Assembly (NCBI GenBank): GCA_964016885.1
Contig: OZ024742.1
Span: 72,230,001-72,294,000 of the forward strand
Reading direction: 5' to 3'
Origin: Eledone cirrhosa
Taxonomy: Eukaryota
DNA length: 64,000 nt
Below, piece after piece: positions 16,691 through 62,600 of the stretch (position 1 is its first letter; the number at the start of each line of letters is the position of its first letter). The translations under genes were made by a program, and so were the position numbers. A model generated the notes under the pieces. It was not told where the DNA came from, did not search any database, and was given only the letters and a program-made list of their open reading frames with translations.

Positions 16691-16715
16691 TCCTTATACA
16701 TATATATATATATAT

Positions 16716-17435
16716 AAATGGAAAAGAATGAAATGAAATTTCATTTCTCACTCTTAGTACGGCTGATAAATATAAGTATGTATACGTACATACATATATG
16801 TATACAGACATACAGTAGTATGTATATATATACATACATGCACACATATATATATGTACGTATGGGTTTACCAAACATTTATTATAATGTTCGCTTTGTT
16901 TGTAAACAAACAGCCCGAATTAAGCCGTACAGTGTTTGGCAACCATCGTCGCCCTTTTGTTCAACACTGACAAAAGAACGATGAACTAGTTTCAAGCTTA
17001 TTAGCTATCGTCAGCATCATATACCTTCCTATCAGATGATTGAACGTTTGAAAGTATATACTTTCCTTATGCATATTAACGGCTGAGCAGCCTAATTTGC
17101 ATATCGAGTGAGTTAGTCAGCCGGGCATACCGAAAACGATAAATGGAAAAGAATGAAATGAAATTTCATTTCTCACTCTTAGTACGGCTGATACTTAAAT
17201 ATAAGTATGTATACGTACATACATATATGTACACAGACGTACAGTAGTATGTATATATATATACATATATGCACACATATATATATGTACGTATGGGTTT
17301 ACCGAACATTTATTATAATGTTCGGTTTGTTTGTAAACAAACAGCCCGAATTAAGCCGTACAGTGTTCGGTAACCATCGTCACCCTTTTGTTCAACACTG
17401 ACGATAGCTAATAAGCTTGAAACTAGTTAATCGTT
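16716..17435 (-). ncRNA. Dispersed ~1.6-monomer copy of the 428-bp hammerhead repeat, ending in an inverted core fragment
   Basis: Same monomer as 31558-42304. Hammerhead core on - at 16978-17020 (AUGAUG-CUGACGA-..-GAAA-CUA-GUU-CAUCGU). Inverted core piece on + at ~17398-17435. Confidence 0.8.
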
Positions 17436-19420
17436 CCAACGGAGCGCGCAAGCTTCATTTCTTTCCAATCTACGCAAGTCTTCTGCACACAGTGCCCAGG
17501 TCTTACTATCATGCAACATTGCGGGTTGTGTGCACGCATCATACAGTCTGCCTTTCATTTTGAGGAAGAAGCCTTTTGTAGCTAACAGTGCTTGTAGCTC
17601 TCTGAACTTCTTCCATCCCATTCTCACTCTGGCTACTGTACTTTCAGAACACCCACCTCTGCTGCTAATTTGGTCACCCAGGTAGCAGAATCTGTCTACT
17701 GCAACTACTGAACCTTCTTGGAATTTGATAGCTCTTGTTTCCTGTGGTTGTTTGCTGCTTACTGCCCCGGTGCGGTGGCTTCATGTAAAACCTATATTTT
17801 TAGCTAAACTACCTGAGATCCCACTACATCTCTTGTGCACCCGTAGTTTGCATTTGGGACAGAGGATAGAATTTCTACCTACACCTTTCCTACACACCGA
17901 GCAAGGCCATCTTCCTGAGGGGATCAGGGCTCTGTATTCCCTTCTACTTACTAGGAACTTATTCTTTGTCTGGTTGACTTTAAGACCCTTTGTTTCTAGG
18001 CCATGCTTCCAGGTTGGAATTTCTTCTCTAATTCTACCATAGACTCAGCTATGAGTGTAAGATCATCCACGTACAGAAGTTTCCATGGGTAGCCGGTCTT
18101 AAACTCCTTTGTATTAGAATCCTAACTTTGCTGACTGCTCCCCTCTACATGGTTTGTACAGCCTTCACAAGCCACTCATCTACTTCTCATTTTCTTAGAG
18201 CCCACCAGATTATGGCATGGGGGACTAATTCCAGGTAGAACATCTTACTTTTAACTAGGTACTTCTCCTGTAGCTGCTTCACCAGAAAGAGAGCATCTGT
18301 TGTGCTTTTACCTGGCACAAATCCAAACGGCATCTCATCTAAATTTACCTGGTACCTAATCAGCTGTTATTTTCATGACCTGGTCCATCAACTTGATGCC
18401 TCTATAGTTTCCTCTATCTAGTGCATCTCCTTTGCACTTGTAGCAGTTGACAAAGATGCTGCTGCGCCAATCATTCAGTTTGACACCATTTGGTTAACAA
18501 GACGTGTGGTTAAGGTGTGACCCACTGACCCAGATGCTTTCAGCATCTTGGCTACTATCCCCAATGGAGTAGCTACTACACTGTTGCTGACTTGTACGGT
18601 TGGGCCCTCTGTAGGGTCCACTTGGGGTAGGGTCTCTTTCTTCCATGCATTCTGTTCATCATCATCATTTAACGTCCATCTTCCACGCTGTTATCTTTCA
18701 CAATGGCTCTTCCATGTTACTTTCTTTTCAGCATCTGTGAGGGCAAGTACACCTTTATCATCACAGACTCACTTCTTACCAATGACATCACAATTTTCCC
18801 TAACGCACTGCCTCACAATCCTGAACACCTCATGTTTCTGGTCTTCATGATGCAAAGCATGCTTGAATTTTTTATCTTCTGCTTTCCTCCTTACTAAGTA
18901 TACTTGTTGTCTAGCTTCCCTCTGGCGTCTATATAGTGTACCCTGCTTCCCACATTCTTCCATTTTTTCAATGCTTGTCTCTTGGCCTTAATTTTCTCAT
19001 CTACCTTACTGTTCTACCACCAAGTCGCTCTCCTTCTCTCTATAGTCCTGCTCCATCCACAGATCTCATCTGTCACTTTCAGTAGATTATCTTTTGGGAA
19101 CTCCAAATGCTCTTCTATATTGAACATCTCAATCCGTTTTTCCTTATAGGCACCGAGAAAAATCTCTCTAAATTTGTTACTGGCTGAGGGCTCTTTCAAC
19201 ATCCATTTCCTTCTCATCCACGTTGCCCTCTGTCTCCAAGTTCATCTAGCTCTGATAATGAAGTCTACTAGGTTATGTTGGGAAGTGCATTCCTCTCCAG
19301 GGAAGGATTTTGTGTTTACCACCGTCACTCTATCTTGTTCTCTGGTAAGGATAAAATCTATCTGACAAACATGTTCACTAGATCTACAGGTGATCAGTTG
19401 ATTGTTGAGTTTTTTGAAGT
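17436..19420 (-). mobile_element. Degenerate RTE LINE (APE end to RT)
   Basis: NFKKLNNQLITCRS..QIDFIL, GWKKFRELQALL and a zinc-finger remnant; many disablements. Confidence 0.8.
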
Positions 19421-23689: not shown

Positions 23690-25246
23690 AGGATTTGCTA
23701 CAAACAGGATGGTTGGACACAACATCAACAAGAACAATTTGCCGAACACAAGGAATGAAAACAATTTACTGGAGAAAACCAATGAGGAAGGTAAACAAAA
23801 TTTATTCAGTGGTAGTTACAGAAGAAACCGAAATTATAAATCGCATTTTTCTTGGAGTTGCGAACTTAATGATGATTTGTTTAATTGTTATAAAATGGCG
23901 AAAAAAAATCCCTCCGTTGGCTATATGAATAGTATGAAGCCACACTGGGACGAAATACATCCAGAGCTAAATCACTTCACTGCCAAACAATTACGCCAAC
24001 AAGCGACGTTTGTTGAACGTAAAAATAAGATAAATATTATTAATTGTAAGTCTGCCAGAACAAACATGGAATCAACAATACGTGCTACAGGTCACCATGC
24101 TACTAGACTTCCTAGCAGCCAGGTCGAACAGTGCTTTGAAACAACTATGCCCGTAAGAAATTTGACACCACGTGTACCATCTGAGTCTGTCTCGACTTTT
24201 TCAAAAGTATAAACAATTGAAATTTTCTCTCAACGAAATCTTCCAGAGAGAAATTAATTCATGTATAAACATTTCTCTTGCTGAACAAAACAACAATACT
24301 AAATAAAATGCAACTAAATAATGAAATCTTACGCGCTATTGACGAAATAGGAGATGAATATTTACGACGGATTAAAACCCACATTTTGGCAAATCAATGC
24401 CTGTTTATATGCCCTAGCAACGACAGTGAAGCATTGTCTTGGTGACAGCAGAGATATTAACAAGAACAAAACACCACAAAAAAAACCATCATCTATATAT
24501 CTAAAACAGATAATGTCTGTCTGTCTGTCCGATCACTAAAACTCGAGAACCACCCAACCGATTGTTTTCAAACTTTACACATGTAATACTTATGATCCTG
24601 TGAGTGTTTTGAACAAAAGAATATTTCAAATTTTCAATGCCCCAGCGACCGTATTAAGCGATTTAGCGATCTCTCTATAATTCTTAGTCTGTCTTTTTAG
24701 ATAGATACATAGCTACGACGTTGCGCCCTTATAATTATTTCTACTTTTGGTACAAGGCCAGCAATTATCCCAGTGTATTACTGGTACTTTATTTTATCGA
24801 CCCCGTAAGGATGAAAGGCAAAGTTAACCGCGCCCTTATAATATCTGTCTGGCTGTCTGCATTACGACATTATGACGCTATCTGTGTGTGTGTGTGTATA
24901 TGTATATATATATAATGTGTGTATATATATATATATACTGTGTAACGTTTTTCGAAATATTTACTTCTGCGTTCACAGATTGATATTTTTAGTTTCAGAA
25001 GATCCCGTTAAGGGTGAAAGCAGCGATTCTTTGCTTAAACTTTAATCTGTTATTTTAATATATATATATATATATTAATATAGATGAGATTCTACAGGTC
25101 TAGAACGGTTTCATTCTTTAGAAATCATCAGGAATCTGGCTATATTAAAACTGTAGAATCTCATCTATATTAACACTTTTATACTCTGCTATGTATTGAG
25201 TACCTTACTTACCGTGGTTACATCCGATTCAACCCGGAATAACTTA

Positions 25247-31344: not shown

Positions 31345-31509
31345 CACACACACACATATATACACACATATACACACCCACACATGTATATATATTAAGA
31401 AATCCATACAATTGCGTGTCTGCATCATACATTCACTAGTGAGACCTGTTGTAAAAAAAACAAGCAAATTCACAAATTCACTTTTGAGACCGCCCGTCTT
31501 GACGTATGC

Positions 31510-31510
<1 letters not shown>
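30648..31510. mobile_element. Non-autonomous TIR DNA transposon (MITE-like)
   Basis: Terminal inverted repeats GGCATACGTCAAG(C/A)CGGGCGGTCTCAAAAGTGAA plus a further inverted block (gtgaatttg...acaacaggtctc). No transposase. Confidence 0.7.
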
Positions 31511-31557
<47 letters not shown>

Positions 31558-31561
<4 letters not shown>

Positions 31562-34500
31562 GGAAAAAAAAAATGAAACGAAATTTCATTTCTCACTCTT
31601 AGTACGACAGTTACTTAAATATAAGTATGTATACGTACATACATATATGTATACAGACGTACAGTAGTATGTATATATATATACATACATGCATACACAT
31701 ATATATGAACGTATGGATTCACCGAACATTTATTATAATGCTCGGTGTGTTTGTAAACAAACATCCCGAATTAAGCAGTACGGTATCTAGCAACCATCGT
31801 TGCTCATTTGTTCAACACTGACAAAGGAATGCTGTACTAGTTTCAAGCTTATTAGCTATCGTCAGCAACGTATACATTCCTGCCAGATGGTTGAACGTCT
31901 GAAAGTATATACTTTTTTATGCATATTAACGGCTAAGCAGGCTAATTTGCATATCGAGTGAGTTATCGGCCGGAGTACCGAAAACGATAAACGGAAAAAA
32001 TGATACGAAATGTTATTTCTCACTCTTAGTACGGCTGTTACTTAAATATAAATATGTATACGTACATATATATATGTATACAGACGTACAGTAGTATGTA
32101 TATATATATACATACATGCACACACATCTATATGAACGTATGGATTCACCGAACATTTATAATAATGCTCGGTGTGTTTGTAAACAAATATCCCAAATTA
32201 AGCCGTACAGTGTCTAGCAACCATCGTTGCACATTTGTTCAACACTGATAAAGGAACGCTGTACTAGTTTCAAGCTTAATAGCCATCGTCAACAACGTAT
32301 ACCTTCCTGCCAGATAGTTGAACGTCTGAAAGTATATACTTTCCTTATGAATATTAATGGCTGAGCAGGCTAATTTGCATATCGAATGAGTTATCGACGG
32401 AGTACCGAAAACGATAAACGGAAAAATGAAACGAAATTTCATTTCTCACTCTTAGTACGGCAGTTACTTAAATATAAGTATGTATACGTACATACATATA
32501 TGTATACAGACGTACAGTAGTATGTATATATATATACATACATGCACACACATATATATGAACGTATGGATTCACCGAACATTTATTATAATGCTCGGTG
32601 TGTTTGTAAACAAACATCCCGAATTAAGCCGTACAGTGTCTAGCAACCATCGTTGCTCATTTGTTCAACACTGACAAAGGAATGCTGTACTAGTTTCAAG
32701 CTTATTAGCTATCGTCAGCAACGTATACATTCCTGCCAGATGGTTGAACGTCTGAAAGTATATACTTTTTTATGCATATTAACGGCTAAGCAGGCTAATT
32801 TGCATATCGAGTGAGTTATCGGCCGGAGTACCGAAAACGATAAACGGAAAAAATGATACGAAATGTTATTTCTCACTCTTAGTACGGCTGTTACTTAAAT
32901 ATAAATATGTATACGTACATACATATATGTATACAGACGTACAGTAGTGTGTATATATATATATACATACATGCACACACATCTATATGAACGTATGGAT
33001 TCACCGAACATTTATAATAATGCTCGGTGTGTTTGTAAACAAATATCCCAAATTAAGCCGTACAGTGTCTAGCAACCATCGTTGCACATTTGTTCAACAC
33101 TGATAAAGGAACGCTGTACTAGTTTCAAGCTTAATAGCCATCGTCAACAACGTATACCTTCCTGCCAGATAGTTGAACGTCTGAAAGTATATACTTTCCT
33201 TATGAATATTAATGGCTGAGCAGGCTAATTTGCATATCGAATGAGTTATCGACGGAGTACCGAAAACGATAAACGTAAAAATGAAACGAAATTTCATTTC
33301 TCACTCTTAGTACGGCAGTTACTTAAATATAAGTATGTATACGTACATACATATATGTATACAGACGTACAGTAGTATGTATATATATATACATACATGC
33401 ACACACATATATATGAACGTATGGATTCACCGAACATTTATTATAATGCTCGGTGTGTTTGTAAACAAACATCCCGAATTAAGCCGTACAGTGTCTAGCA
33501 ACCATCGTTGCTCATTTGTTCAACACTGACAAAGGAACGCTGTACTAGTTTCAAGCTTATTAGCTATCGTCAGCAACGTATACCTTCCTGCCAGATGGTT
33601 GAACGTCTGAAAGTATATACTTTCCTTGTGCATATTAACGGCTGAGCAGCCTATTTTGCATATCGAGTGAGTTATCGGCCGGAGTACCGAAAACGATAAA
33701 CGGAAAAAATGAAACGAAATTTCATTTCTCACTCTTAGTACGGCTGTTACTTAAATATAAATATGTATACGTACATACATATATGTATACAGACGTACAG
33801 TAGTATGTATATATATATACATACATGCACACACATATATATGAACGTATGGATTCACCGAACATTTATAATAATGCTCGGTGTGTTTGTAAACAAATAT
33901 CCCAAATTAAACCGTACAGTGTCTAGCAACCATCGTTGCACATTTGTTCAACACTGATAAAGGAACGCTGTACTAGTTTCAAGCTTAATAGCTATCGTCA
34001 ACAACGTATACCTTCCTGCCAGATAGTTGAACGTCTGAAAGTATATACTTTCCTTATGAATATTAACGGATGAGCAGGCTAATTTGCATATCGAATGAGT
34101 TATTGACGGAGTACCGAAAACGATAAACGGAAAAAATGAAACGAAATTTCATTTCTCACTCTTAGTACGGCTGTTACTTAAATATTAGTATGTATACGTA
34201 CATACATATATGTATACAGACGTACAGTAGTATGTATATATATATACATACATGCACACACATATATATGAACGTATGGATTCACCGAACATTTATTATA
34301 ATGCTCGGTGTGTTTGTAAACAAACATCCCGAATTAAGCCGTACAGTGTCTAGCAACCATCGTTGCTCATTTGTTCAACACTGATAAAGGAAGGCTGTAC
34401 TAGTTTCAAGCTTATTAGCTATCGTCAGCAACGTATACCTTCCTGCCAGATGGTTGAACGTCTGAAAGTATATACTTTCCTTATACATATTAACGGCTGA

Positions 34501-37500
34501 GCAGCCTAATTTGCATATCGAGTGAGTTATCGGCCGGGGTACCGAAAACGATAAACGTAAAAAATGAAACGAAATTTCATTTCTCACTCTTAGTACGGCA
34601 GTTACTTAAATATAAGTATGTATACGTACATACATATATGTATACAGACGTACAGTAGTATGTATATATATACATACATGCACACACATATATATGTACG
34701 TATGGATTCACCGAACATTTATTATAATGCTCGGTGTGTTTGTAAACAAACATCCCGAATTAAGCCGTACTGTGTCTAGCAACCATCGTTGCTCATTTGT
34801 TCAACACTGATAAAAGGAGCGCTGTACTAGTTTCAAGCTTATTAGCTATCGTCAGCAACGTATACCTTCCTGCCAGATGGTTGAACGTCTGAAAGTATAT
34901 ATTTTTCTTATGCATATTAACGGCTGAGCAGCCTAATTTGCATATCGAGTGAGTTATCGACGGGGTACCGAAAACGATAAACGTAAAAAATGAAACGAAA
35001 TTTCATTTCTCACTCTTAGTACGGCAGTTACTTAAATATAAGTATGTATACGTACATACATATATGTATACAGACGTACAGTAGTATGTATATATATACA
35101 TACATGCACACACATATATATGTACGTATGGATTCACCGAACATTTATTATAATGCTCGGTGTGTTTGTAAACAAACATCCCGAATTAAGCCGTACAGTG
35201 TCTAGCAACCATCGTTGCTCATTTGTTCAACACTGACAAAGGAACGCTGTACTAGTTTCAAGCTTAATAACAATCGTTAGCAACGTATACCTTCCTGCCA
35301 CATGGTTGAACGTCTGAAAGTATATACTTTCCTTATGCATATTAACGGCTGAGCAGGCTAATTTGCATATCGAATGAGTTATCGGCCGGAGTACCGAAAA
35401 CGATAAACGGAAAAATGAAACGAAATTTTATTTCTCACTCTTAGTACGGCTGTTACTTAAATCTAAGTATGTATACGTACATACATATATGTATACAGAC
35501 GTACAGTAGTATGTATATATATATACATACATGCACACACATCTATATGAACGTATGGATTCACCGAACATTTATTATAATGCTCGGTGTGTTTGTAAAC
35601 AAACATCCCGAATTAAGCCGTACAGTATCTAGCAACCATCGTTGCTCATTTGTTCAACACTGACAAAGGAACGCTGTACTAGTTTCAAGCTTATTAGCTA
35701 TCGTCAGCAACGTATACCTTCCTGCCAGATGGTTGAACGTCTGAAAGTATATACTTTCATTATGCATATTAACGGCTAAGCAGCCTAATTTGCATATCGA
35801 GTGAGTTATCGGCCGGAGTACCGAAAACGATAGACGGAAAAAATGATACGAAATGTTATTTCTCACTCTTAGTACGGCTGTTACTTAAATATAAATATGT
35901 ATACGTACATACATATATGTATACAGACGTACAGTAGTATGTATATATATATACATACATGCACATACATATATATGAACGTATGGATTCACCGAACATT
36001 TATAATAATGCTCGGTGTGTTTGTAAACAAATATCCCGAATTAAGGCGTACAGTGTTTAGCAACCATCGTTGCTTATTTGTTCAACACTGACAAAGGAAC
36101 GCTGTACTAGTTTCAAGCTTATTAGCTATCGTCAGCAACGTATACCTTCCTGCCAGATGGTTAGAACTTCTGAAAGTATATACTTTCCTTATGCATATTA
36201 ACGGCTGAGCAGCCTAATTTGCATATCGAGTGAGTTATCGGCCGGGGTACCGAAAACGATAAACGGAAAAAATGGAACGAAATTTTATTTCTCACTCTTA
36301 GTACGGCAGTTACTTAAATAAAAGTATGTATAGGTACATACATATATGTATACAGACGTACAGCAGTATGTATATATATATATACATACATGCACACACA
36401 TATATATGTACGTATGGATTCACCGAACATTTATTATAATGCTCGGTGTGTTTGTAAACAAACATCCCGAATTAAGCCGTACAGTGTCTAGCAACCATCG
36501 TTGCTCATTTGTTCAACACTGACAAAGGAACGCTGTACTAGTTTCAAGCTTAATAGCAATCGTCAGCAACGTATACCTTCCTGCCACATGGTTGAACGTC
36601 TGAAAGTATATACTTTCCTTATGCATATTAACGGCTGAGCAGGCTAATTTGCATATCGAATGAGTTATCGGCCGGAGTACCGAAAACGATAAACGGAAAA
36701 AATGAAACGAAATTTTATTTCTCACTCTTAGTACGGCCGTTACTTAAATATAAGTATGTATACGTACATACATATATGTATACAGACGTACAGTAGTATG
36801 TATATATATATACATACATGCACACACATATATATGAACGTATGGATTCACCGAACATTTATTATAATGCTCGGTGTGTTTGTAAACAAACATCCCGAAT
36901 TAAGCCGTACAGTGTCTAGCAACCATCGTTGCTCATTTGTTCAACACTGACAAAGGAACGCTGTACTAGTTTCAAGCTTATTAGCTATCGTCAGCAACGT
37001 ATACCTTCCTGCCAGATGGTTGAACGTCTGAAAGTATATACTTTCCTTGTGCATATTAACGGCTGAGCAGCCTATTTTGCATATCGAGTGAGTTATCGGC
37101 CGGAGTACCGAAAACGATAAACGGAAAAAATGAAACGAAATTTCATTTCTCACTCTTAGTACGGCTGTTACTTAAATATAAATATGTATACGTACATACA
37201 TATATGTATACAGACGTACAGTAGTATGTATATATATATACATACATGCACACACATATATATGAACGTATGGATTCACCGAACATTTATAATAATGCTC
37301 GGTGTGTTTGTAAACAAATATCCCAAATTAAACCGTACAGTGTCTAGCAACCATCGTTGCACATTTGTTCAACACTGATAAAGGAACGCTGTACTAGTTT
37401 CAAGCTTAATAGCTATCGTCAACAACGTATACCTTCCTGCCAGATAGTTGAACGTCTGAAAGTATATACTTTCCTTATGAATATTAACGGATGAGCACGC

Positions 37501-40500
37501 TAATTTGCATATCGAATGAGTTATTGACGGAGTACCGAAAACGATAAACGGAAAAAATGAAACGAAATTTCATTTCTCACTCTTAGTACGGCTGTTACTT
37601 AAATATTAGTATGTATACGTACATACATATATGTATACAGACGTACAGTAGTATGTATATATATATACATACATGCACACACATATATATGAACGTATGG
37701 ATTCACCGAACATTTATTATAATGCTCGGTGTGTTTGTAAACAAACATCCCGAATTAAGCCGTACAGTGTCTAGCAACCATCGTTGCTCATTTGTTCAAC
37801 ACTGATAAAGGAAGGCTGTACTAGTTTCAAGCTTATTAGCTATCGTCAGCAACGTATACCTTCCTGCCAGATGGTTGAACGTCTGAAAGTATATACTTTC
37901 CTTATACATATTAACGGCTGAGCAGCCTAATTTGCATATCGAGTGAGTTATCGGCCGGGGTACCGAAAACGATAAACGTAAAAAATGAAACGAAATTTCA
38001 TTTCTCACTCTTAGTACGGCAGTTACTTAAATATAAGTATGTATACGTACATACATATATGTATACAGACGTACAGTAGTATGTATATATATACATACAT
38101 GCACACACATATATATGTACGTATGGATTCACCGAACATTTATTATAATGCTCGGTGTGTTTGTAAACAAACATCCCGAATTAAGCCGTACTGTGTCTAG
38201 CAACCATCGTTGCTCATTTGTTCAACACTGATAAAGGAACGCTGTACTAGTTTCAAGCTTATTAGCTATCGTCAGCAACGTATACCTTCCTGCCAGATGG
38301 TTGAACGTCTGAAAGTATATATTTTTCTTATGCATATTAACGGCTGAGCAGCCTAATTTGCATATCGAGTGAGTTATCGGCGGGGTACCGAAAACGATAA
38401 ACGTAAAAAATGAAACGAAATTTCATTTCTCACTCTTAGTACGGCAGTTACTTAAATATAAGTATGTATACGTACATACATATATGTATACAGACGTACA
38501 GTAGTATGTATATATATACATACATGCACACACATATATATGTACGTATGGATTCACCGAACATTTATTATAATGCTCGGTGTGTTTGTAAACAAACATC
38601 CCGAATTAAGCCGTACAGTGTCTAGCAACCATCGTTGCTCATTTGTTCAACACTGACAAAGGAACGCTGTACTAGTTTCAAGCTTAATAGCAATCGTTAG
38701 CAACGTATACCTTCCTGCCACATGGTTGAACGTCTGAAAGTATATACTTTCCTTATGCATATTAACGGCTGAGCAGGCTAATTTGCATATCGAATGAGTT
38801 ATCGGCCGGAGAACCGAAAACGATAAACGGAAAAATGAAACGAAATTTTATTTCTCACTCTTAGTACGGCTGTTACTTAAATCTAAGTATGTATACGTAC
38901 ATACATATATGTATACAGACGTACAGTAGTATGTATATATATATACATACATGCACACACATCTATATGAACGTATGGATTCACCGAACATTTATTATAA
39001 TGCTCGGTGTGTTTGTAAACAAACATCCCGAATTAAGCCGTACAGTATCTAGCAACCATCGTTGCTCATTTGTTCAACACTGACAAAGGAACGCTGTACT
39101 AGTTTCAAGCTTATTAGCTATCGTCAGCAACGTATACCTTCCTGCCAGATGGTTGAACGTCTGAAAGTATATACTTTCATTATGCATATTAACGGCTAAG
39201 CAGCCTAATTTGCATATCGAGTGAGTTATCGGCCGGAGTACCGAAAACGATAGACGGAAAAAATGATACGAAATTTTATTTCTCACTCTTAGTACGGCTG
39301 TTACTTAAATATAAATATGTATACGTACATACATATATGTATACAGACGTACAGTAGTATGTATATATATATACATACATGCACACACATATATATGAAC
39401 GTATGGATTCACCGAACATTTATAATAATGCTCGGTGTGTTTGTAAACAAATATCCCGAATTAAGGCGTACAGTGTTTAGCAACCATCGTTGCTTATTTG
39501 TTCAACACTGACAAAGGAACGCTGTACTAGTTTCAAGCTTATTAGCTATCGTCAACAACGTATACCTTCCTGCCAGATGGTTAGAACTTCTGAAAGTATA
39601 TACTTTCCTTATGCATATTAACGGCTGAGCAGCCTAATTTGCATATCGAGTGAGTTATCGGCCGGGGTACCGAAAACGATAAACGGAAAAAATGAAACGA
39701 AATTTTATTTCTCACTCTTAGTACGGCAGTTACTTAAATAAAAGTATGTATAGGTACATACATATATGTATACAGACGTACGGCAGTATGTATATATATA
39801 TATACATACATGCACACACATATATATGTACGTATGGATTCACCGAACATTTATTATAATGCTCGGTGTGTTTGTAAACAAACATCCCGAATTAAGCCGT
39901 ACAGTGTCTAGCAACCATCGTTGCTCATTTGTTCAACACTGACAAAGGAACGCTGTACTAGTTTCAAGCTTAATAGCAATCGTCAGCAACGTATACCTTC
40001 CTGCCACATGGTTGAACGTCTGAAAGTATATACTTTCCTTATGCATATTAACGGCTGAGCAGGCTAATTTGCATATCGAATGAGTTATCGGCCGGAGTAC
40101 CGAAAACGATAAACGGAAAAAATGAAACGAAATTTTATTTCTCACTCTTAGTACGGCCGTTACTTAAATATAAGTATATATACGTACATACATATATGTA
40201 TACAGACGTACAGTAGTATGTATATATATATACATACATGCACACACATATATATGAACGTATGGATTCACCGAACATTTATTATAATGCTCGGTGTGTT
40301 TGTAAACAAACATCCCGAATTAAGCCGTACAGTGTCTAGCAACCATCGTTGCTCATTTGTTCAACACTGATAAAGGAACGCTGTACTAGTTTCAAGCTTA
40401 TTATCTATCGTCAGCAACGTATACCTTCCTGCCAGATGGTTGAACGTCTGAAAGTATATATTTTTCTTATGCATATTAACGGCTGAGCAGCCTAATTTGC

Positions 40501-42300
40501 ATATCGAGTGAGTTATCGGCCGGGGTACCGAAAAAGATAAACGTAAAAAATGAAACGAAATTTCATTTCTCACTCTTAGTACGGCAGTTACTTAAATATA
40601 AGTATGTATACGTACATACATATATGTATACAGATGTACAGTAGTATGTATATATATACATACATGCACACACATATATATGTACGTATGGATTCACCGA
40701 ACATTTATAATAATGCTCGGTGTGTTTGTAAACAAACATCCCGAATTAAGCCGTACAGTGTCTAGCAACCATCGTTGCTCATTTGTTCAACACTGACAAA
40801 GGAACGCTGTACTAGTTTCAAGCTTAATAGCAATCGTCAGCAACGCATACCTTCCTGCCACATGGTTGAACGTCTGAAAGTATATACTTTCCTTATGCAT
40901 ATTAACGGCTGAGCAGGCTAATTTGCATATCGAATGAGTTATCGGCCGGAGTACCGAAAACGATAAACGGAAAAAATGAAACGAAATTTTATTTCTCACT
41001 CTTAGTACGGCTGTTACTTAAATCTAAGTATGTATACGTACATACATATATGTATACAGACGTACAGTAGTATGTATATATATATACATACATGCACACA
41101 CATCTATATGAACGTATGGATTCACCGAACATTTATTATAATGCTCGGTGTGTTTGTAAACAAACATCCCGAATTAAGCCGTACAATATCTAGCAACCAT
41201 CGTTGCTCATTTGTTCAACACTGACAAAGGAACGCTGTACTAGTTTCAAGCTTATTAGCTATCATCAGCAACGTATACCTTCCTGCCAGATGGTTGAACG
41301 TCTGAAAGTATATACTTTCATTATGCATATTAACGGCTAAGCAGCTTAATTTGCATATTGAGTGAGTTATCGGCCGGAGTACCGAAAACGATAAACGGAA
41401 AAAATGAAACGAAATTTTATTTCTCACTCTTAGTACGGCTGTAACTTAAATATAAGTATATATACGTACATACATATATGTATACAGACGTACAGTAGTA
41501 TGTATATATATATACATACATGCACACACATATATATGAACGTATGGATTCACCGAACATTTATTATAATGCTCGGTGTGTTTGTAAACAAACATCCCGA
41601 ATTAAGGCGTACAGTGTCTAGCAACCATCCTTGCTCATTTGTTCAACACTGACAAAGGAACGCTTTACTAGTTTCAAGCTTATTAGCTATCATCAGCAAC
41701 GTATACCTTCCTACCAGATGGTTGAACGTCTGAAAGTATATACTTTCCATATGCATATTAACGGCTGAGCAGCCTAATGTGTATATCGAGTGACTTATCG
41801 GCCGGGGTACCGAAAACGATAAACGGAAAAAATGAAACGAAATTTCATTTCTCACTCTTAGTACGGCTGTTACTTAAATCTAAGTATGTATACGTACATA
41901 AATATATGTATACAGACGTACAGTAGTATTTATATATATATACATACATGCACACACATATATATGAACGTATGGATTCAACGAACATTTATTATAATGC
42001 TCGGTGTGTTTGTAAACAAACATCCCAAATTAAGCCGTACAGTGTCTAGCAACCATCGTTGCTCATTTGTTCAACACTGACAAAGGAACGCTGTACTAGT
42101 TTCAAGCTTATTAGCTATCGTCAGCAACGTATACCTTCCTGCCAGATGGTTGAACGTCTGAAAGTATATACTTTCCTTATGCATATTAACGGCTGAACAG
42201 CCTAAATTGCATATCGAGTGAGTTATCGGCCGGAGTACCGAAAACGATAAACGGAAAAAATGAAACGAAATTTCATTTCTCACTCTTAGTACGGCTGTTA

Positions 42301-42304
<4 letters not shown>
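31558..42304 (-). repeat. Tandem array of 25 monomers of ~428 bp (+~55 bp), each with a type-I hammerhead ribozyme motif; higher-order repeat structure
   Basis: Monomer period 424-430 from recurring ORF-track starts (31627, 32054, 32480, 33335...41886). Flanked on both sides by (TA)n. Confidence 0.97.
31810..31896 (-). ncRNA. Minimal type-I hammerhead ribozyme (first monomer; recurs every ~428 bp)
   Basis: Consensus minus-strand read: GUUCAAC-CAU-CUGGCA-GG-AAGG-UAU-ACGUUG-CUGACGA-U-AGCU-AAUA-AGCU-U-GAAA-CUA-GUA/CAGCGU-U-CCUU-UGUCAG-U-GUUGAAC. Monomer 1 has two helix I substitutions relative to this consensus. Predicted cleavage lies between 31835 and 31834. Confidence 0.85.
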
Positions 42305-42382
<78 letters not shown>

Positions 42383-43081: not shown

Positions 43082-43117
<36 letters not shown>

Positions 43118-44585
43118 TAGACCAACATTCTCCCTCTCTCACTAAACCACCAAACTCTCTCTCCCTCTTTATATCCGACTACATACCATTCTCTCTCACT
43201 CTCACAATTCCCCCTCTCTCACTAAACCACAAAACTCTCTCCCTCTCTATATATCCCACTACATACCCCACTCTCTCTCACTCTCACAATTCTCTCATTG
43301 AACCACAACAAATTCTCCCTCTCTCTATACACCACTACATACCTCACTCTATAATTCTCATAATTCCCCCTCTCTCACTAAACCACCAAACTCTCTGCCA
43401 CCCTCTATATCCCACTACATACCTCACTCTCTCACATTTTCCCTCTCACACTAGATGACCAAATTCTCTCTCCTCTCTATATACCAATACATACCTCACT
43501 TTCGTAATTTCCACTCTCTCATTAGCCCACCAAACTCTCTCCTCATATCTCACTACATGCTTCAATCTCTATCGCTTTCACAATTACCTCTCTCTCACTA
43601 TACCACCAAACTCTTTGCTCCTCTCTATATCCCATTACATACCTCAGTTTCTCTCACAATTTCCCCTCTCTCAATAGACGACCAAATTCTAACCCCCCCC
43701 CCCCCCCTCTCTATTCCATTACATACCTCACTCTGTCTCACTCTCAAAATACCCCCTCTCTCACCAGGCCAATAAATTCTCTCCCCCTCTCTATAACCCA
43801 CTACATACAATACTCTCTCTCACAATACCCCTCTCTCCCTAGACCACCAAATTTTCTCACCCTCTCTCACTAGACCAACAAATTATCTACCCTTTTCTAT
43901 ATTCCAATACATACCTCATTTCCTCTCACTCTCACAATACCCTCTCTCTCACTAGACAACCAAATTCTCTTCCCTCTCTATATCCTACTACATATCGCAC
44001 TCTCTCTCAAAATTCCCCCTCTCTCACTAGACCACCAAATTCACTCCCTCTCTATATATCTCACTACATATCTCACTCTCTCTCTCACAATTCTGCCTCT
44101 CTCACTAAAACATCAAACTCCCCCCCCCCCCTCCCCCTTACTCTATACCACTACATACCTCCCTCCATCTTACAATTCCCCGTCTCTCACTAGACTACCA
44201 AATTCTCTCCCCTCTCTCTATTCCGCTGTATAACTCACTCTCTTTCACTCTCTTAATTCCCCCTTCTCTCTAAGCAAACAAATACTCTCCCGCTCTCTAC
44301 ATACCTCACTCTCGCTCACAATTTCTCCTCTCTCATTAGACCACCAAATTCTCTCCCTTTCTCTATAATCCACTACATACTTCACTCTTTCTCACTCTCA
44401 CATAAGGCCAATAAACTCTCTCCCCCTCTCAATAACCCACTACATACCTCACACTCTCTCACTAGAACACCAAATTCTCTCCCCCTCTATATATTCTACT
44501 ACATACCTCACTCTCTTTCACTCTCTTAATTCCCCTCTCTCACTAGAGTAGCAAATTCTCTCACCCTCTCTGTTTCCCACTACAA
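43010..44585. repeat. Degenerate ~70-bp CT-rich minisatellite
   Basis: Recurring unit ctctctcactagaccaccaaattctctccctctctatatcccactacatacctcactctctcacaattccc. Confidence 0.85.
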
Positions 44586-46168: not shown

Positions 46169-46171
<3 letters not shown>

Positions 46172-47350
46172 CAAACACACGGAGCATTATAATAAATGTT
46201 CGGTGAATCCATACGTACATATATATATGTGTGCATGTATGTATATATATATATACATACTACTGTACGTCTGTATACATATATGTATGTACGTGTACAT
46301 ACTTATATTTAAGTAACAGCCGTACTAAGAGTGGGAAATGAAATTTCGTTTCATTTTTTCCGTTTATCTTATCGTTTTCGGTGCACCCGGCCGATTAACC
46401 CACTCGATATGCAAATTGGGCTTCTCAGCTGTTAATATGCATAAGGTAAGTATATACGTTCAACAATCTGACAGGAAGGTATACGTTGCTGACGATAGCT
46501 AATAAGCTTGAAACTAGTACAGCGTTCCTTTGTCAGTGTTGAACAAACGAGCAACGATAGTTGCTGGACACTACGGCTTAATAAGGGATGTTTGTTTACA
46601 AACACACCGAGCATTATAATAAATGTTCGGTGAATCTATACGTACATATATATATATGTGTGCATGTATGTATATATATATACATACTACTGTACGTCTG
46701 TATACATATATGTATGTACGTGTACATACTTATTTAGCAGGGTGGTAGAATGATTGAAGGTCGTTAGTTGCCAATGTGGTAAGTAATAGTATCCTTGTTG
46801 AATTATCTTGTCGACATAGACGTGAGGGAAGGTCCCTCGATCTATTTACCATCTTTGTATTTACGATATTCCTTTCGTCAGGTCGCCAATTCCAGCAGCA
46901 TGGATTATAGATGTTATTGAGACACGAGTAACATAATAATGATTTCAACAGCAGAAATTAGAGATGAAATGTATGTTTATTTTTGATGTAGCACAAACAA
47001 TGTTTGTTAACTTATATGGTTGAAGTTACAGATAAAAAGGTTACAAAAGGGAATGTGCCATTGCGCTGGAAAGCCGGCGAGGCTAGGGTGCAATATCTCA
47101 CTGTTACATTATGCGTGTTGCTGGCTCGAAGTTCCTGGTACAAGAGAGAGATTCTTCAAATCTTCGCGGGGAATTTCTTCCTCAGGGCGCGTAGGGATAC
47201 ATCCTCTTCTACTGGCGCTGATTGGCTGAACTGAGCCAAATCACGCACAGAGAATGTATGTGAGCCCGCGGAATGTAGGTCACTACACTTATATTTAAGT
47301 AACAGCCGTACTAAGAGTGGGAAATGAAATTTCGTTTCATTTTTTCCGTT

Positions 47351-47352
<2 letters not shown>
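46169..47352 (+). ncRNA. Dispersed ~1.5-monomer copy of the 428-bp hammerhead repeat in the opposite orientation, interrupted by a solo LTR
   Basis: Intact core on + at 46483-46525 (ACGTTG-CTGACGA-TAGCTAATAAGCTT-GAAA-CTAGTA-CAGCGT). Flanked by (TA)n and (TG)n. Confidence 0.85.
46734..47287. mobile_element. Solo LTR-like insertion with 5-bp TSD CTTAT
   Basis: CTTAT at 46729-46733 and 47288-47292; ends CACTACA and begins T(G)TAGCAG. The monomer sequence rejoins across it. Confidence 0.7.
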
Positions 47353-47412
<60 letters not shown>

Positions 47413-53382: not shown

Positions 53383-53418
53383 TCTTAACGTTTCGGACGC
53401 TAGTCCTTCATCAGAAGA
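53383..53418 (-). ncRNA. Minimal Penelope-type hammerhead
   Basis: UCUU-CUGAUGA-A-GGAC-UAGC-GUCC-GAAA-CGUU-AAGA, with palindromic AACGUU in place of helix III. Confidence 0.65.
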
Positions 53419-54223: not shown

Positions 54224-54609
54224 GCCAATCACTGTAAGTTTGAATCTAACTAACATAGTAGATTCAAATTAGATTCATAGTAGATTCAAATATCACAGTG
54301 AGAAAGAGAGAAGGAGGGGGGGGGGAGAAATGAGGTGCAACAGAAATAAAACAGATTTCAGATTAAAATATAGTCTAGATATATGAGAAACAAAACGAGG
54401 ATGTAGTTTATGGAACACCCAAATGATTTAGAAGTCGACATTAAGTAGGAGCAATAACATTAAGAAAGATATGAACGACATCGCATCATTTTGTATAGAA
54501 AATAGGTTTATAAGTATGGATTTTCACAAGATTTACGTAGCTGTCTCAGTGGACTAGTAGTAGGTACTAGAGACGGTGGAGATCCTGCATCGACATGGAT
54601 TTAAAAATG

Positions 54610-57600
54610 AGGTGGGGAAAAGATGAATTAATGTTAAATAGAAGAAAAAGGTCCACAAGATCGGTAATTTGGGCAGAATCACTAGAGCCCATAGTTATGT
54701 AGAAGAGATTACTATATGTAGGAAAAATTACTATATAGGAAAAATTATAAAAACACAAATAATGCGGCTCTTATCAATATCAACAACAAAACATACAGCA
54801 TAGTAAATAAATTCAATATTGAAGACAGAACTGAACCCTTGGCACTGAAAAAAACACATTTTAACCTGAAGGATCACAAATCTAATTTCAACTCTAATCC
54901 TTCTATAAGACTTATATGCCCTTCTAAATCAGACATTGGCATCATAAGCAAAAAAAATCTGGATAGAATTATCCCACAATTAAGAAAACACGTTAATTTA
55001 CTACTCTGGGAAAACACATCCCAAGTAATTACTTGGTTTACTAATATTGAAAATAAATCCTCTGCTTCATTTCTACAATTCGATATAGATGCATATTATT
55101 CCTCTATATGACCCATACTCCTGAACAAAGCCTTGATATTTGCCAAAAATAGATCAGACTTAACTATGGATGACATCAATATTATCACGCACGCTTGACA
55201 AACACTACTTGAATTTCAGAAGGAATTGTTGGACCAGAAATACATATAGTAATCTCTTCGACATAACTATGGCTCTAGTGATTCTGCCCAAATTACCGAT
55301 CTTGTGGGCCTTTTTCTTTTATTTAACATTAATTCATCTTTTCCCCACCTTAAAGGTGGTTTATATCGTGATGACTGTCTTCTTCTATCCTCTAATCTTA
55401 GCCTATCAGAAATTGAAATAAATAAAAAACTTATTAGAACTTTCCTCAAAGACTATTATAATCTCACTATTACATTTGAAAACACCAGTAAAATAGTCAA
55501 TTTCCTAGATATAACTATGGACCTATATACAGGAATCTACCAACCTTACCATAAATCTAACCAAAACTTGCATTACATACACTCACAATCTAATCACCCT
55601 AGATCTATCCTTAAAAACCTAGCATATAATATCTCACTCAGAATCATGATGTATTCGATAAAAACGCGCCCTTTTATAATGAAACTTTAGCTAGAAGTGG
55701 CCATAAGAACAAATTAGTCTATATACCTTGCACCAATAATATTTCAAACACAACCTAATATTACCAACAAACACCAAATGAAAAACCCACACCTAAATGC
55801 CACTCATACTACACCTAAAAACACCAACCCAAAACTTAATTTCTCTACCTCTTCTCACATAAAAGATAATGACGTTCAAAAAACTATTCACCCTAATACT
55901 CTTATATATGTCAACAACATAACTAACAAAATTCCTAGTAATCAGGCTAAAACATCAATTAATCTAACTAAACCTATATATAATAAAATCACTAATAGTA
56001 ACTCTATCAGTAAACCTCCCGATACATCATATAAATATAAGAAACAATGTCGAAACCGTAATAGATGGGTTACTTGGTATAATGCTCCATTTAATCTACA
56101 GATTAAAGACCATATCCCTAAAAAAAATTCTTTGCTATCCTGGAGAAAAACTTCCCACCAAACCATAAATACCATCAAATTTTAAATAGATCTACTGTCA
56201 AATTTTCCCACTCCACTACCAAGAATATACAACAGAATATAAGTGCTTACAACATATATAAGTGTAAAAAAAAACATAAATATACCACCAACATATCAAA
56301 CCAACCATAATAATACTAAAATAAACGAAAACAAACCACCTTCTTCACCTATAATAGGTCCCGTAATAATCTCCAAAACAAACAGAACTCTACTAGCTCC
56401 ACATCCCCTAAATTATCACCCACCAACAACCTGTCTAACCATACTAATCTAATTACAACCCATTCTAAACCATACATTAATGAAAATAGTAACACTAATA
56501 CCACTATAGATAACACAATTAACTCTCCTGATACAATATTTACGAATGGGTGTAACTGTAGAATCAAAAGAAATTGCCCATCAAAGGGAAATTGTCTTAT
56601 TAATAACATATTCTATAAATGTGTAATTAGTACTAAGGACTCCACTCAATCCTATATAGGAGCTACGTCTAACCAATTTAAAGTAAGATTTAATACCCAC
56701 AAACATAGTTTTTAAAATGCCGCATTAGCTAATACAACCTCCTTGGTTGAAGCAATTAATAATTATAGAAAGAAGGATATTGATTGCAACCTGACCTGGA
56801 GCGTGCTCAAAAGGGCCATCCTTTATCAAAATAGCAGATATGAGTGTAGGTTATTCTCCCAAGAACTATTTGAAATCATGAAATCTAATGATATCCTATT
56901 AAATAAGCGACAGGAGTTAATTATATCATGCAATCATAGAATTAGAAAAACCTTCAAATATTATAAACTTAATTAATATATACCTCACTCTTATATTTTA
57001 CAAATTATTATAATTAATTTAAAAATTGTTTTTTAATTTAGTTAACCTATAATTAGATATTTACTACTAAGAATTTCATAATTTTATTTCCCTCCTGCAG
57101 CTCACTTTACCTAAAGTTATCTTTAACCTCACTACTTCTTTTAACCGCATCCCCTATCTATCACATTTAATACCTAGGATTATTAAATATAATTAATATC
57201 TTTAATATTATGGATGTTTAGATAGATACACTTTTTATAAAATTTTATCTATTTCAGTCTTTCTATATATATTTTTTATTTTATTTTTTTTTTTACTTCT
57301 TTATTTATCACATTCATAAGAATTAATATAATTTTAATTCTGTAATTAATTTAATTTCCCTTTATGTATCTAGGTTCCTTGAAATTTAAACAGGAGTAGT
57401 ATTTCTCACTAACACTCTCATCCCACAAAAAATTCATTTCCCTTCGTTTTTAACAGCATTCTTTAATAACATCAATTTTTTTTTTGGGGGGGGGGGGGGG
57501 GGGATCCTTCACAATTTCATTGACTTGAGCTCATTTTAACCCCTATCTTTCTCTTCCCCATTGTATTCTTTTCATTCAGAGCATAAATTTACATTCCTCC

Positions 57601-57928
57601 ACTCCTAGCATAAAGTTCTACTACTGTTATTCTATCAACTTGACCTCTAACTCTTTTCTATGGTCAATTCAAAACCTGTTCCCAAACAGACTTTTTGTAT
57701 TAATACTGTGTTTCTTTCAATAAACATACTTCATCATTTCTGAAGATGGCATATATAAGTGACGGTATATATATATCTCCTCTGATAATTTGTAATATTT
57801 TTTTACATAGATCTTTAATATGATATACATACCAACACACATATATATCCCAGAAACGATCGTAAAATGATGACTTTTTCAATATAAGGAACCTGTTCTT
57901 TGTTTTTATTTCATTGTTTTTATTTATT

Positions 57929-57930
<2 letters not shown>
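54610..57930 (+). mobile_element. Penelope-like element (RT + GIY-YIG endonuclease + 3' pLTR), degenerate
   Basis: RT: SIRLICPSKSDIG, QFDIDAYYSSI, GLYRDD, NFLDITMDL, YIHSQSNHP. Endonuclease: CNC..CPSKGNC..IFY..SYIG..FKVRFNTHKHSF. Inverted 5' piece (54610-54720 = reverse complement of 55241-55350); ends at (TA)n. Confidence 0.9.
57732..57872 (+). ncRNA. Hammerhead in the Penelope 3' pLTR with a ~100-nt helix II insert
   Basis: CAUCAUUU-CUGAAGA-UGG...CCA-GAAA-CGAUC-GUA/AAAUGAUG. Perfect 8-bp helix I and palindromic ACGAUCGU helix III. Confidence 0.75.
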
Positions 57931-59699: not shown

Positions 59700-62600
59700 T
59701 ATTTAATTATGGACTAGAGCATATGAACAACACCGAGGATCGCAAAATCATCATCGGAGCAGACAAACGCCCAGCTTCAGAACATGAACGCAAGTTCAAT
59801 GCACCTGTTACTGATGAAGTTACAATCATAATGGTTGATGAACAGCATGAATGTCATGACATTGTTTTACAAAAACGAAGTGGACATTTGAAGCGAATAT
59901 GTGAAACTCATAAGGCCTATGACTCACTCCAATATCCGCTCATCTTCTGGAATGTTTAAGATGGATATCTTTTTCAGTTCTGGCAAATCAACCCAGGAAC
60001 AGGCCAAGAAACTGGCCGATCAATCATCTGCAAAGAATGCCTATCATTTCATGTAACGGGATCACTTCAACAAAGTTTTGCGATTCAAAGAAGTAACCAG
60101 CCACTTCATGGTGGATATGTATGCCAAAATTGAAACAGAAAGATTGGGTTTCCTGCGAAGGAATCAAAATAAGTTGAGGACAGAAATACATCCACCTTAG
60201 AGATGCCATCAATTATGGTGGCGACCCAAAAAATATTGACCAACCAGTCATACTGCCAAGCTTCAAGGGAGGACCGCATTACATGCATGAATATATGCAT
60301 GATGCAATAGCCTATGTCAGAAAATTTGGCTGGCCGGATCTCTTCATTACATTTACATACAACTCAAACTGGACAGAAATATCCAATGAATTATTTCCAA
60401 ATCAGAAACCGAAGGATCGACATGGCCTTATTGCTCAGGCGTTTCATAAAAAGCAAAAAAAAAAAAAACCTCCTCAAGTTCCTAAAAGAAGGAAGAATCT
60501 TTGGTGAGCTTAGTTCCTGGATGACCACTATTGAATGGCAGAATAGGGGACTTCCTCACTCTCAAACACTAATCTAGTGCAAGGAGAAGATAAGACCAGA
60601 TGATATCGACAAGATCATTTCAGCGGGGTTGCCTGATAAAGATTGCGATCCAGCTCTTTGAAACCATCAAGACTAATATGGAGTCATCAATCCAATTTCA
60701 CTCGACATGCAGGATCAAAAATGTAGCAAAAATTATCCTAGAGCTTTTATTCAGGAAACTCAAGCTGAAAATGATAGATATCACCTAACTGCAAACCTAA
60801 CAGTTCGGGGAGAGGAGCTGACCATAGACAATCGATGGGTAAGTCCCATACAACAAATTGTTGTGCAAAGCCCTAAAAGCTCATATCAATGTTGAGTATA
60901 GCAGCTCCGTCAAAGCAATACTGTATGTTATAAAATATATCTAGGACAGTAACATGGTTGCCTTTGTTACTAACAAGGAGCTCAATGATGTTCGGCTGGA
61001 TGAGGTCAAACGGTATCAGACAGGTCGATACATATCCAGCAATGAAGCTATCTGACAGATACGCCGCCTAGCAGTGGTCAATCTAGCAGTTCACCTGGAG
61101 AATGGACAGAGAATGTGCTTCACTGAAACCATTGCTCATTAGTTGGTACAAGCAACATCCAACACAGCTCAAACTGCTTTTTTTAAACTCTGCCAGAATT
61201 ATGAATTTCCCTCCTGTACACTGAGATTCCAACATACTTCACCTGGACGAATTGTAAAACCTGGAATCTAAGGAAACAGGATCATTTAGTGGACGGTAAT
61301 GAAGTCATGGCAAGTGATGCTATTGGGCGTGTTTACAATCTACGGTTACTTCTACATACTGTTCGAGTACCAACGTTATTTGAGGATCTCGGGTGCTTCG
61401 AAGAAAAAGTGTGTGCAACATACCAAGAAGCAAGTAAGCAGCATGGACTCCTCCATGACAATGGACATTGGAAGAAGACCCTAGAAGAAACAGCAATCAC
61501 TCGAGTAGCCATTCAAATAAGGCATTTGTTTACTATTATGCTCATAGCATATGGAATTGAAGCTCATCTACTCTGGCAGGAATCAAAAACAGTATGTCAA
61601 ACGACTATCTACACCTAACCCAAAGACACCATGACAATATGTATATAGAATGTTCCCCCAGCATTTACAATCAAGCTCTCTGCAACTTGTCCCATCAAGT
61701 TCAAGCAATGAATAGCATATTAACTAACTACGGGATGCCAGAGTCGGAAGAACCATGAAGAAATGGAGGTAGCACAAAGAAATTTTCAGGAGACAAATTA
61801 CGATATTCGTGTCTTGCGTAGGTTTGTGGATGAAAATGAACCTCAAAATAACAGGAGAGGACTTTTCTTCATCGATGATCTTGCTGGCACAGGTAAGATA
61901 TTCCTCATAAACCTCCTTCCTGCAAAAGTTCCTCAAAAGCAACATATTACCCTTATTGTGGCTTCAAGTGGCATTGCAATAACACTTCTGGATGGAGGAA
62001 GAACTGCACACTCCATGTGTCAGCTGCCCATAGACCTCACATGGCATGAACAATCGTTTTGCAACATCGGAAAGAAATCACCCAAAGGCAAGCTCCTACA
62101 AACATGCAAAATGATCATTTGGGATGCAGCCACCAGCCATAAACGCACAATTGAAGCCTTGGACTGGACAATAAGAGACCTGAAAGAAAATACTTGCATA
62201 ATAGGAGTGACAATAGTTCTTGCTGGTGATTTCTGACAAACTCTGTCAGAAATTCCCTGAGTGACCCGAGCTGATCAAGTCAATGCCTGTCTGAAATCAT
62301 CCTATCTCTGGCCCAATTTTTAACGACTGAGCCTTACAACCAATATGCCAGTGCACTTGACTGGTGATGAAGATGTCAGTGAGTTTGCCACCCAACTACA
62401 TAAATTGGAAAATGGACTTCTTTAAAAGGATTCCAACGACCAGATTCAGTTGTCATTTGACCATATCATTGAAACAAAACAAGAACTGATAGCCAGAGTC
62501 TTTCCAAACATTCAGATCAGACAATGTGATTCCAAATGGCTCGGTGAACGAACAATCTTAGCACCGAAAAATGTTATTGTGAAAGAAATCAACAGAAGGC

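Follow-up and report, generated by a model that had tools for sequence, protein, structure and literature searches.

The DNA analysed here is a 64,000-bp stretch of the genome of Eledone cirrhosa (assembly GCA_964016885.1, contig OZ024742.1, positions 72,230,001 to 72,294,000; the window), in which positions 31556-42302 are occupied by a tandem array with a period of 428 bp, 25.3 copies and 95% matches (Tandem Repeats Finder). The array, whose RNA sense is the minus strand, comprises 25 full monomers of 424-431 bp and a 56-bp partial unit and lies between two (TA)n runs, a (TA)16 target remnant at its 3' end (31527-31558) and a (TA)38 run at its 5' end (42303-42379). Its GC content is 0.34-0.37, it contains no coding frame of at least 150 aa except a microsatellite frame that touches its left end, and no open frame combining reverse transcriptase (RT) and GIY-YIG domains was found in the unit. 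In the monomer a (TA)-rich core is accompanied by terminal hairpins, and its circular fold (428 nt) reaches -143 kcal/mol, a value without shuffle control that is partly due to the TA-rich core. Between 33696 and 40536 (minus strand) the array holds two copies of a block of about eight monomers, monomers 6-12 differing from monomers 14-20 by 0-3 bases each. As described below, the array is one insertion of a widely dispersed, hammerhead-bearing element that was inserted by Penelope-like element (PLE) machinery.

A first-pass annotation of the window had reported an array of ~428-bp monomers with a type I hammerhead motif on the minus strand, and this description is correct. In monomer 1 the motif spans 31810-31896 (minus strand) and is made up of a segmented helix I, the core, a U·U mismatch followed by a 4-bp helix II, a palindromic minimal helix III and a GUA triplet, with predicted cleavage at 31835|31834, the site that had been annotated; in the position numbering used throughout, which runs along monomer 13 in the minus-strand reading, the predicted cut is 153|154. 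The predicted H17 lies, again on the minus strand, at 32262, 32688, 33117, 33543, 33971, 34398, 34825, 35250, 35677, 36105, 36536 and 36964 in monomers 2-13 and at 37392, 37819, 38245, 38670, 39097, 39525, 39956, 40384, 40810, 41238, 41666 and 42094 in monomers 14-25. The GAAA, the palindromic helix III and the GUA triplet are kept in 25/25 monomers, while the core, which had been described as present in every monomer, is intact in only 18 of the 25, with C3U in five and G5A in two, changes that are expected to impair cleavage given the C3-G8 pair and the role of G5. All four helix II pairs are kept in 19/25 monomers, and core, helix II and proximal helix I are intact together in eight of the 25, such copies standing next to each other in one pair only. 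The four annotated helix I segments are present in the array consensus, as are the 4-bp helix II and its U·U base, although monomer 1 itself departs from two of the segments.

In folding predictions the helices form as annotated. Fold z-scores were -3.06 and -2.43 for two array copies and -1.82 and -3.51 for two dispersed copies, and in the predicted dimer helix II and distal helix I pair with probabilities of 0.72-1.0 (one edge pair, 0.57), two core-adjacent pairs being weaker (0.59 and 0.45). Helix III is not formed inside a single copy and is predicted to form between two copies (duplex, -6.8 kcal/mol); dimer cleavage via a palindromic helix III has been described (PMC4209133). The U·U mismatch, which the annotation had entered as a caveat, is indeed present but is a weaker concern than it seemed, as helix II also starts from U·U in the axolotl ribozyme HHR_Amex2, which cleaves and does so better as a dimer (PMC7229834), and U·U has been termed the best-tolerated mismatch at this position (PMC3088659). 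We conclude that the repeat contains a probable self-cutting RNA motif.

The repeat is not confined to the array. An exact 25-mer taken just past the cut site has 8,498 matches genome-wide (3.0 Gb; control, 0), a lower bound, as the 25-mer misses decayed copies and a third subfamily, for which there are 3,521 first-look candidates; at least three subfamilies are present in the genome. The array belongs to the 'long' subfamily, from whose consensus the array consensus differs at 4 positions, and array units are about as diverged from the consensus (median 2.9%) as dispersed copies are (2.3%), so that the array amounts to a single long insertion site of an element that is common, and no locus examined was longer. 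Copies without LTR (long terminal repeat) structure run from less than one to more than 10 units in length across 56 loci. Three further pieces lie in the window: a 1.6-unit copy of another subfamily at 16714-17437 (minus strand), with its distal 3' end in a short TA run and an inverted stub that carries a hammerhead core at 17398-17437 (plus strand); a 1.3-unit copy at 46169-46733 (plus strand), which adjoins (AT)41 and ends at about the proximal site defined below; and a tail-only fragment at 47289-47353 (plus strand), which ends at the distal site and is followed by a short TA run and then (TG)n. In contigs from four sequencing runs (library kind unspecified) the repeat is present at a low share in two further organisms, one repeat variant having pair-keeping changes. 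The annotated count of 25 amplified copies is thus right for the full monomers of the array but understates a genome-wide family, and what had been taken for a single amplified satellite is the longest copy seen of a dispersed family, a copy that is decaying and was partly built by DNA-level duplication; the view of the unit as a retrozyme-like, non-coding, hammerhead-bearing mobile unit is right, and the annotation's own check, on genome-wide copies and structure-keeping changes, turned out mostly in its favour.

Several other features of the genome touch on the family and its motif. On contig C4, eleven tandem ~2.2-kb units (L034 and L031-L033, G000:C4:349894000-349918300) each contain one 1.3-unit retrozyme insertion and pieces of other repeats; this tandem was considered as a parent element and rejected, being a segmental duplication around one insertion in a TA-rich repeat nest. 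At monomer positions 70-78 and 108-116, the short subfamily carries upstream of the hammerhead a perfect splice-donor-like motif that is lost in the long one, where a hairpin with an 8-nt insertion stands in its place; introns near the hammerhead are kept in PLEs (PMC4209133). A second, unrelated minimal hammerhead with a 4-bp helix II and a palindromic zero-loop helix III lies in a short repeat between TA runs at 53391-53414 of the window (minus strand), and a related copy is present in each unit of the C4 duplication. A third hammerhead-like family, at 25109-25131 (minus strand), lies inside a short fold-back that is flanked by TA runs; its helix II has a U·U base, and its core has 12 matches in the fetched loci. 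U·U hammerheads recur across several families of this genome.

Comparison of the subfamilies bears on whether the ribozyme structure has been kept. The three subfamily consensus sequences differ at 47/428 columns; in the third subfamily the hammerhead changes affect N7, H17 (GUU in place of GUA), the 10.1·11.1 mismatch on each of its sides (C·A in place of U·U) and loop bases, and three helix pairs are changed yet still paired, one of them on both sides. Among 30 loci of this subfamily, which were chosen by likeness to one copy and are not a random sample, 9/11 core positions are unchanged in 30/30, G12 in 29 and A13 in 27. In a pairing test on 27 pairs in 52 distinct rows, drawn from 95 loci with an ungapped motif, 98.1% of cells were paired compared with 96.3% after shuffling (0/500 shuffles), and a pattern search for double changes at the first helix II pair returned 1 unrelated site. 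Comparison of the consensus sequences and pairing favours a kept hammerhead structure, short of proof. The ribozyme of the third subfamily is probably a weaker one, judging from its motif.

How the element inserts can be read from its ends. We sampled 56 of the 59 clusters formed by the first 100 listed matches, all on contig C1 and picked by position and the exact 25-mer, and chained the hits into 95 arms, 94 of which lie away from the locus edge. The 3' ends of these 94 arms fall at 366-376 in 37 cases, at 425-428 in 40 and elsewhere in 17; two of the 40 are chaining breaks inside a tandem, leaving 75 true ends at two sites. Read where the flank is not TA, the true proximal end is position 369, which puts 59 nt between the two fixed 3' ends. 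A strict (TA)n flank accompanies 24/37 proximal and 36/40 distal ends (60/77 canonical ends in total), and the 5' ends of the 94 arms are spread across the whole unit, as in random 5' truncation. Thirty of the 56 loci contain head-to-head (inverted) pairs of arms, 32 pairs altogether, of which 22 combine a proximal with a distal end, none combines two alike and 10 include another end, so that all 22 classifiable pairs are mixed; one mixed pair was doubled by segmental duplication, and the remaining 21/21 have a probability of 0.5^21 = 5e-7 under random pairing. Both arms belong to the same subfamily in 24/24 typed pairs (8 were untyped) and therefore come from one RNA or one source. In the window, the 3' end of the array is the distal site (31556, position 428), and the optional tail between it and the proximal site (31619|31618, position 369) occupies 31556-31618 (minus strand). 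The 5' end of the array (42247-42303) lies within a few bases of the proximal start site, that is, of the tail boundary, and is joined to (TA)38; chance microhomology with the target and a second cut are candidate explanations.

These ends are those of a PLE insertion. PLEs are described as having partial tandems, a 5'-truncated copy in inverted orientation, a tail that may be present at one end, and (TA)n targets (Craig et al.; PMC8557442), and for the Anolis element PAc both strands are reported to be cut and extended in vitro from two internal start sites that bound the tail (Frangieh et al.; PMC11167929). The dispersed copies show the same combination, namely two ends with an optional tail between them, partial tandems with an inverted 5'-truncated arm, and an AT-rich or microsatellite target. 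We conclude that the genome shows the retrozyme repeat to have been inserted by endonuclease-bearing (EN+) PLE machinery.

Several PLE families that might supply such machinery are present in the genome. An older Hydra-type family (40,981 first-look candidates) has an optional tail of ~130 nt and its own hammerhead-like motif with a long insertion in helix II; no homology between it and the monomer was found. Its member in the window, at 54300-57930 (plus strand), is a broken Hydra-clade element with a YRDD RT core, a CxCX5C linker and an endonuclease, and ends in (TA)n. Neptune-type families have frames of up to 1,096 aa, and one of them combines a U·U hammerhead with (TA)n ends. A young Hydra-type family gave 150 scored matches, all 100% identical over 105 aa, and has open 713-aa frames that contain the RWx, DKT and CxCX5C motifs, clade-defining in PMC8557442, on which the clade call rests; a Pfam search of the 713-aa frame returned zero matches. 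At L247-L252 and L187-L216 (e.g. G000:C4:182090000-182097000) this young element forms a 3.25-kb tandem unit, and in every copy seen its hammerhead-like motif has A instead of U4, helix II having a U·U base. Used as a positive control, 37 loci of the young family yielded inverted pairs of which 13 are mixed, none alike and 2 with another end, its tail measuring 94 nt; the autonomous young Hydra-type PLE thus obeys the same end-pairing rule as the retrozyme. Three loci first considered as Hydra-retrozyme chimeras were rejected: at L197 a Hydra copy is nested inside a retrozyme, and at L247 and L251 the two are neighbours at shared TA targets. Among the output listed for 30 GIY-YIG loci and 20 long-frame (Neptune-type) loci, only neighbouring retrozyme insertions were seen. 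The partner would be one of the young Hydra- or Neptune-clade families, and our guess, only a little better than a coin toss, is the Hydra clade.

The arms also carry information on the template. No 5' end falls within 150-158, around the cleavage site (0/94 arms; ~2 expected if uniform), and 69/77 canonical arms pass at least one cut site. The cut linear monomer is therefore excluded as the template, which was either a circle or an uncleaved multimer in the form of a tandem transcript. As none of the insertions begins at the cut, mobility may not depend on processing by the ribozyme. Two observations speak for a circle. One inverted insertion, at C1:9.97 Mb, has eight full units on its two arms that differ from one another by 0-5 bases, compared with 18-28 from units of two other loci, as expected from one template copied many times. 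At L134 (G000:C1:49584000-49588800) two variants alternate over 11 units, and at L099 over 4, a two-unit periodicity that hints at dimer templates or duplication of a dimer. Three identical A-B pairs beside more diverged units at L134 stand against a simple circle and suggest late local duplication, and the median divergence within loci (2.4%, compared with 4.7% between loci) can likewise be set against a simple circle. The window array is not star-like: besides the recurrence of units 6-12 as units 14-20, it has many variants that its units share like a mosaic, so that part of its length comes from DNA duplication after insertion. Through duplication and exchange at the DNA level the array was later lengthened and mixed, and it is now decaying.

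Taken as a whole, these data are best explained by a non-autonomous, non-coding retroelement of the non-LTR retrozyme kind inserted by endonuclease-bearing PLE machinery, a reading to which we assign a probability of about 0.78. A PLE protein would cut both strands of a (TA)n run and begin reverse transcription inside one retrozyme RNA, at monomer positions 369 and 428; the product would be a single 5'-truncated arm or a head-to-head pair whose two arms end at different sites. The template runs through the cleavage site and is an uncleaved tandem transcript or a circle; the hammerhead would cleave slowly, as a dimer, via its palindromic helix III, and at about even odds some monomers or dimers would be ligated into circles and copied round more than once by the reverse transcriptase. 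Duplication and exchange of DNA then enlarged and mixed the array, which is decaying.

A number of observations weigh against this reading or parts of it. A search of the whole window with Rfam at the gathering score returned zero matches, and among 88 Rfam matches at E<=5 on 31500-33300 there was no hammerhead family, only low-complexity miRNA-type models; the hammerhead call therefore comes from core sequence, fold and subfamily comparison rather than from a library model. Covariation is thin: only 2/27 pairs change on both sides (209/500 shuffles reach this) and one pair accounts for 21/22 cells. The third subfamily has spread to thousands of candidate sites with C·A at 10.1·11.1 and GUU, eight of nine predicted Xenopus retrozyme dimers are reported not to cleave in vitro (bioRxiv 10.64898/2026.07.22.740005), and HHR (hammerhead ribozyme) mutants did not reduce PAc insertion in vitro (PMC11167929). 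Several multi-unit insertions mix units of different subfamilies, for which a monomer circle cannot account, and the cleavage site shows no excess of mosaic breakpoints (3/14, about as its length predicts). Finally, no autonomous PLE with a pseudo-LTR (pLTR) homologous to the monomer was found among 30 + 30 + 20 + 37 PLE loci, the only PLE link being a 22-nt match to the young Hydra 3' UTR, which was first spotted by eye (0/300 shuffles).

Within PLE-driven insertion, the role of the ribozyme can be read in two ways. The element may be a live retrozyme, whose monomer or dimer circles are copied repeatedly by a Hydra-clade PLE protein that primes on both (TA)n strands at two sites of the same circle, arrays of at least 10 units, repeating with the period of a monomer or a dimer, being born in one event; we put this forward only tentatively, as it is in our judgement rather unlikely in this full form. 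If it were true, the young open-frame PLE families would allow retrozyme mobilization to be rebuilt in vitro from matching parts, and a role of the ribozyme in PLE biology, the supply of a circular, endlessly readable template, would become directly testable. Conversely, the hammerhead may be a slow or dead pseudo-LTR relic in a non-autonomous PLE that is not a working retrozyme, with linear read-through RNAs of tandem copies as templates, no circle and long arrays formed solely by unequal crossing-over, an alternative that we regard as doubtful although it is the most serious one. It would fit the lack of 5' ends at the cleavage site, the single insertions with units of mixed subfamilies, the array that is not star-like and contains an 8-unit duplication, the late local duplication suggested by the A-B pairs in the 11-unit L134, the weak covariation and the dispensability of the HHR for PAc insertion in vitro (PMC11167929). 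It sits poorly with a core and helices that are kept across three consensus sequences differing at 47 columns, and with the eight near-identical units on both arms at C1:9.97 Mb.

Other machineries fare far worse than PLE-driven insertion. A DNA-level rolling-circle repeat, Helitron- or Helentron-derived and with a microsatellite core, might have had its tandem core turned into a satellite: the (TA)-rich core and terminal hairpins of the monomer may resemble such microsatellite-core elements in molluscs, and a PIF1-type helicase fragment, probably from a Helitron, lies in the window at 61724-62233 (plus strand). Against this, random 5' truncation, head-to-head arms and proximal/distal pairing match the PLE of the same genome, 28 solo 5' flanks, inverted arms masked, share no common terminus or element end, and 5' ends rather than fixed termini are found over the whole unit; the end statistics largely refute this origin, which we consider very improbable. 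Equally improbable is a SINE-like element mobilized by a LINE, the hammerhead being incidental. LINE fragments are abundant in the window and LINEs also show 5' truncation and inversion, but the repeat has two internal 3' ends and 3' ends that face outward on both sides, its units extend beyond one monomer in permuted order, and it lacks a poly(A) tail. That an ordinary satellite carries a chance hammerhead-like motif, for which the missing Rfam match and the loose hammerhead core patterns elsewhere in the window might speak, is next to impossible given thousands of dispersed copies with PLE ends and a core that is complete, has the correct three-way geometry and is retained from subfamily to subfamily.

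By its structure, as far as a genome sequence can tell, the family belongs with the animal non-LTR retrozymes, a class that is already known: it has a hammerhead motif in each 428-bp, AT-rich and non-coding unit and occurs at many loci as monomers to multimers. The retrozymes of coral, Mytilus mussel and axolotl (Cervera and de la Pena, 2020; PMC7229834) are described as alike in their type I hammerheads, non-coding tandem units of 150-450 bp with GC below 50%, arrays that range from dimers up to long multimers (62-mers in coral), copy numbers in the thousands, absence of LTRs and presence of PLEs in the same genome. The monomer of 420-428 nt is at the long end of that range, and the family is known from genome sequence alone; its insertion anatomy, with two start sites, paired inverted arms and (TA)n targets, goes beyond what that account gives, in which PLEs figure only as 'a strong candidate'. 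The motif shares its weak palindromic helix III with axolotl HHR_Amex1, which is of the newt satellite 2 type and also works better as a dimer, and its U·U with HHR_Amex2, thus combining the weak features of both, except that one subfamily has C·A and GUU instead. In Xenopus, monomers are likewise reported as dispersed and multimers as local (Li, Clavereau and Pollet, 2026; bioRxiv 10.64898/2026.07.22.740005), and that study and ours agree that animal retrozymes are non-autonomous PLE derivatives; its evidence, as presented, is co-occurrence in 35 genomes (no mollusc among those it gives) and pLTR homology, whereas ours is insertion structure and includes no pLTR parent. The EN+ PLEs Hydra/Neptune (PMC8557442) and Anolis PAc (PMC11167929) are described with the same partial tandems, inverted 5'-truncated arm, optional tail between two RT start sites, targets that are AT-rich or (TA)n, hammerhead within the repeat and uncleaved RNA template. 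Unlike them, the family has no RT/endonuclease frame, and its tail is 59 nt long compared with 30-40 bp in those accounts and ~94 and ~130 nt in this genome's two Hydra-type families.

Two other features of the window lie apart from the family. Frames at 6608-9420 (minus strand) appear to resemble the part of an LTR retrotransposon that encodes integrase, RT and protease and are flanked by matching repeats of 16-bp units at 6499 and 10421. Just past the array, at 43100-44520, is a C/T-rich minisatellite with 76-80-bp units and extreme strand skew.

A literature search, with subscription papers, Repbase and Dfam outside it, returned no paper on this family or on an end-pairing rule in retrozymes; the giant squid genome paper, in the part that deals with them, lists 235 Rfam hammerhead loci without analysis (PMC6962438). 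As the class itself is known, the family is a good specimen rather than a new kind of element. It bears on two questions, the identity of the enzyme that mobilizes animal retrozymes and the standing of the circle as the real intermediate. The link to PLEs was proposed in 2020 (PMC7229834) and argued from co-occurrence and pLTR homology in 2026 (bioRxiv 10.64898/2026.07.22.740005); new here are a third, structural line of evidence for mobilization by PLEs and a near-absolute arm-end rule that the retrozyme has in common with an autonomous PLE of its own genome. The dispersed copies also provide genome-level support for priming at two sites and on both strands, as observed in vitro with one lizard PLE, and the array in the window illustrates one route by which a retroelement becomes a 10-kb satellite-like array.

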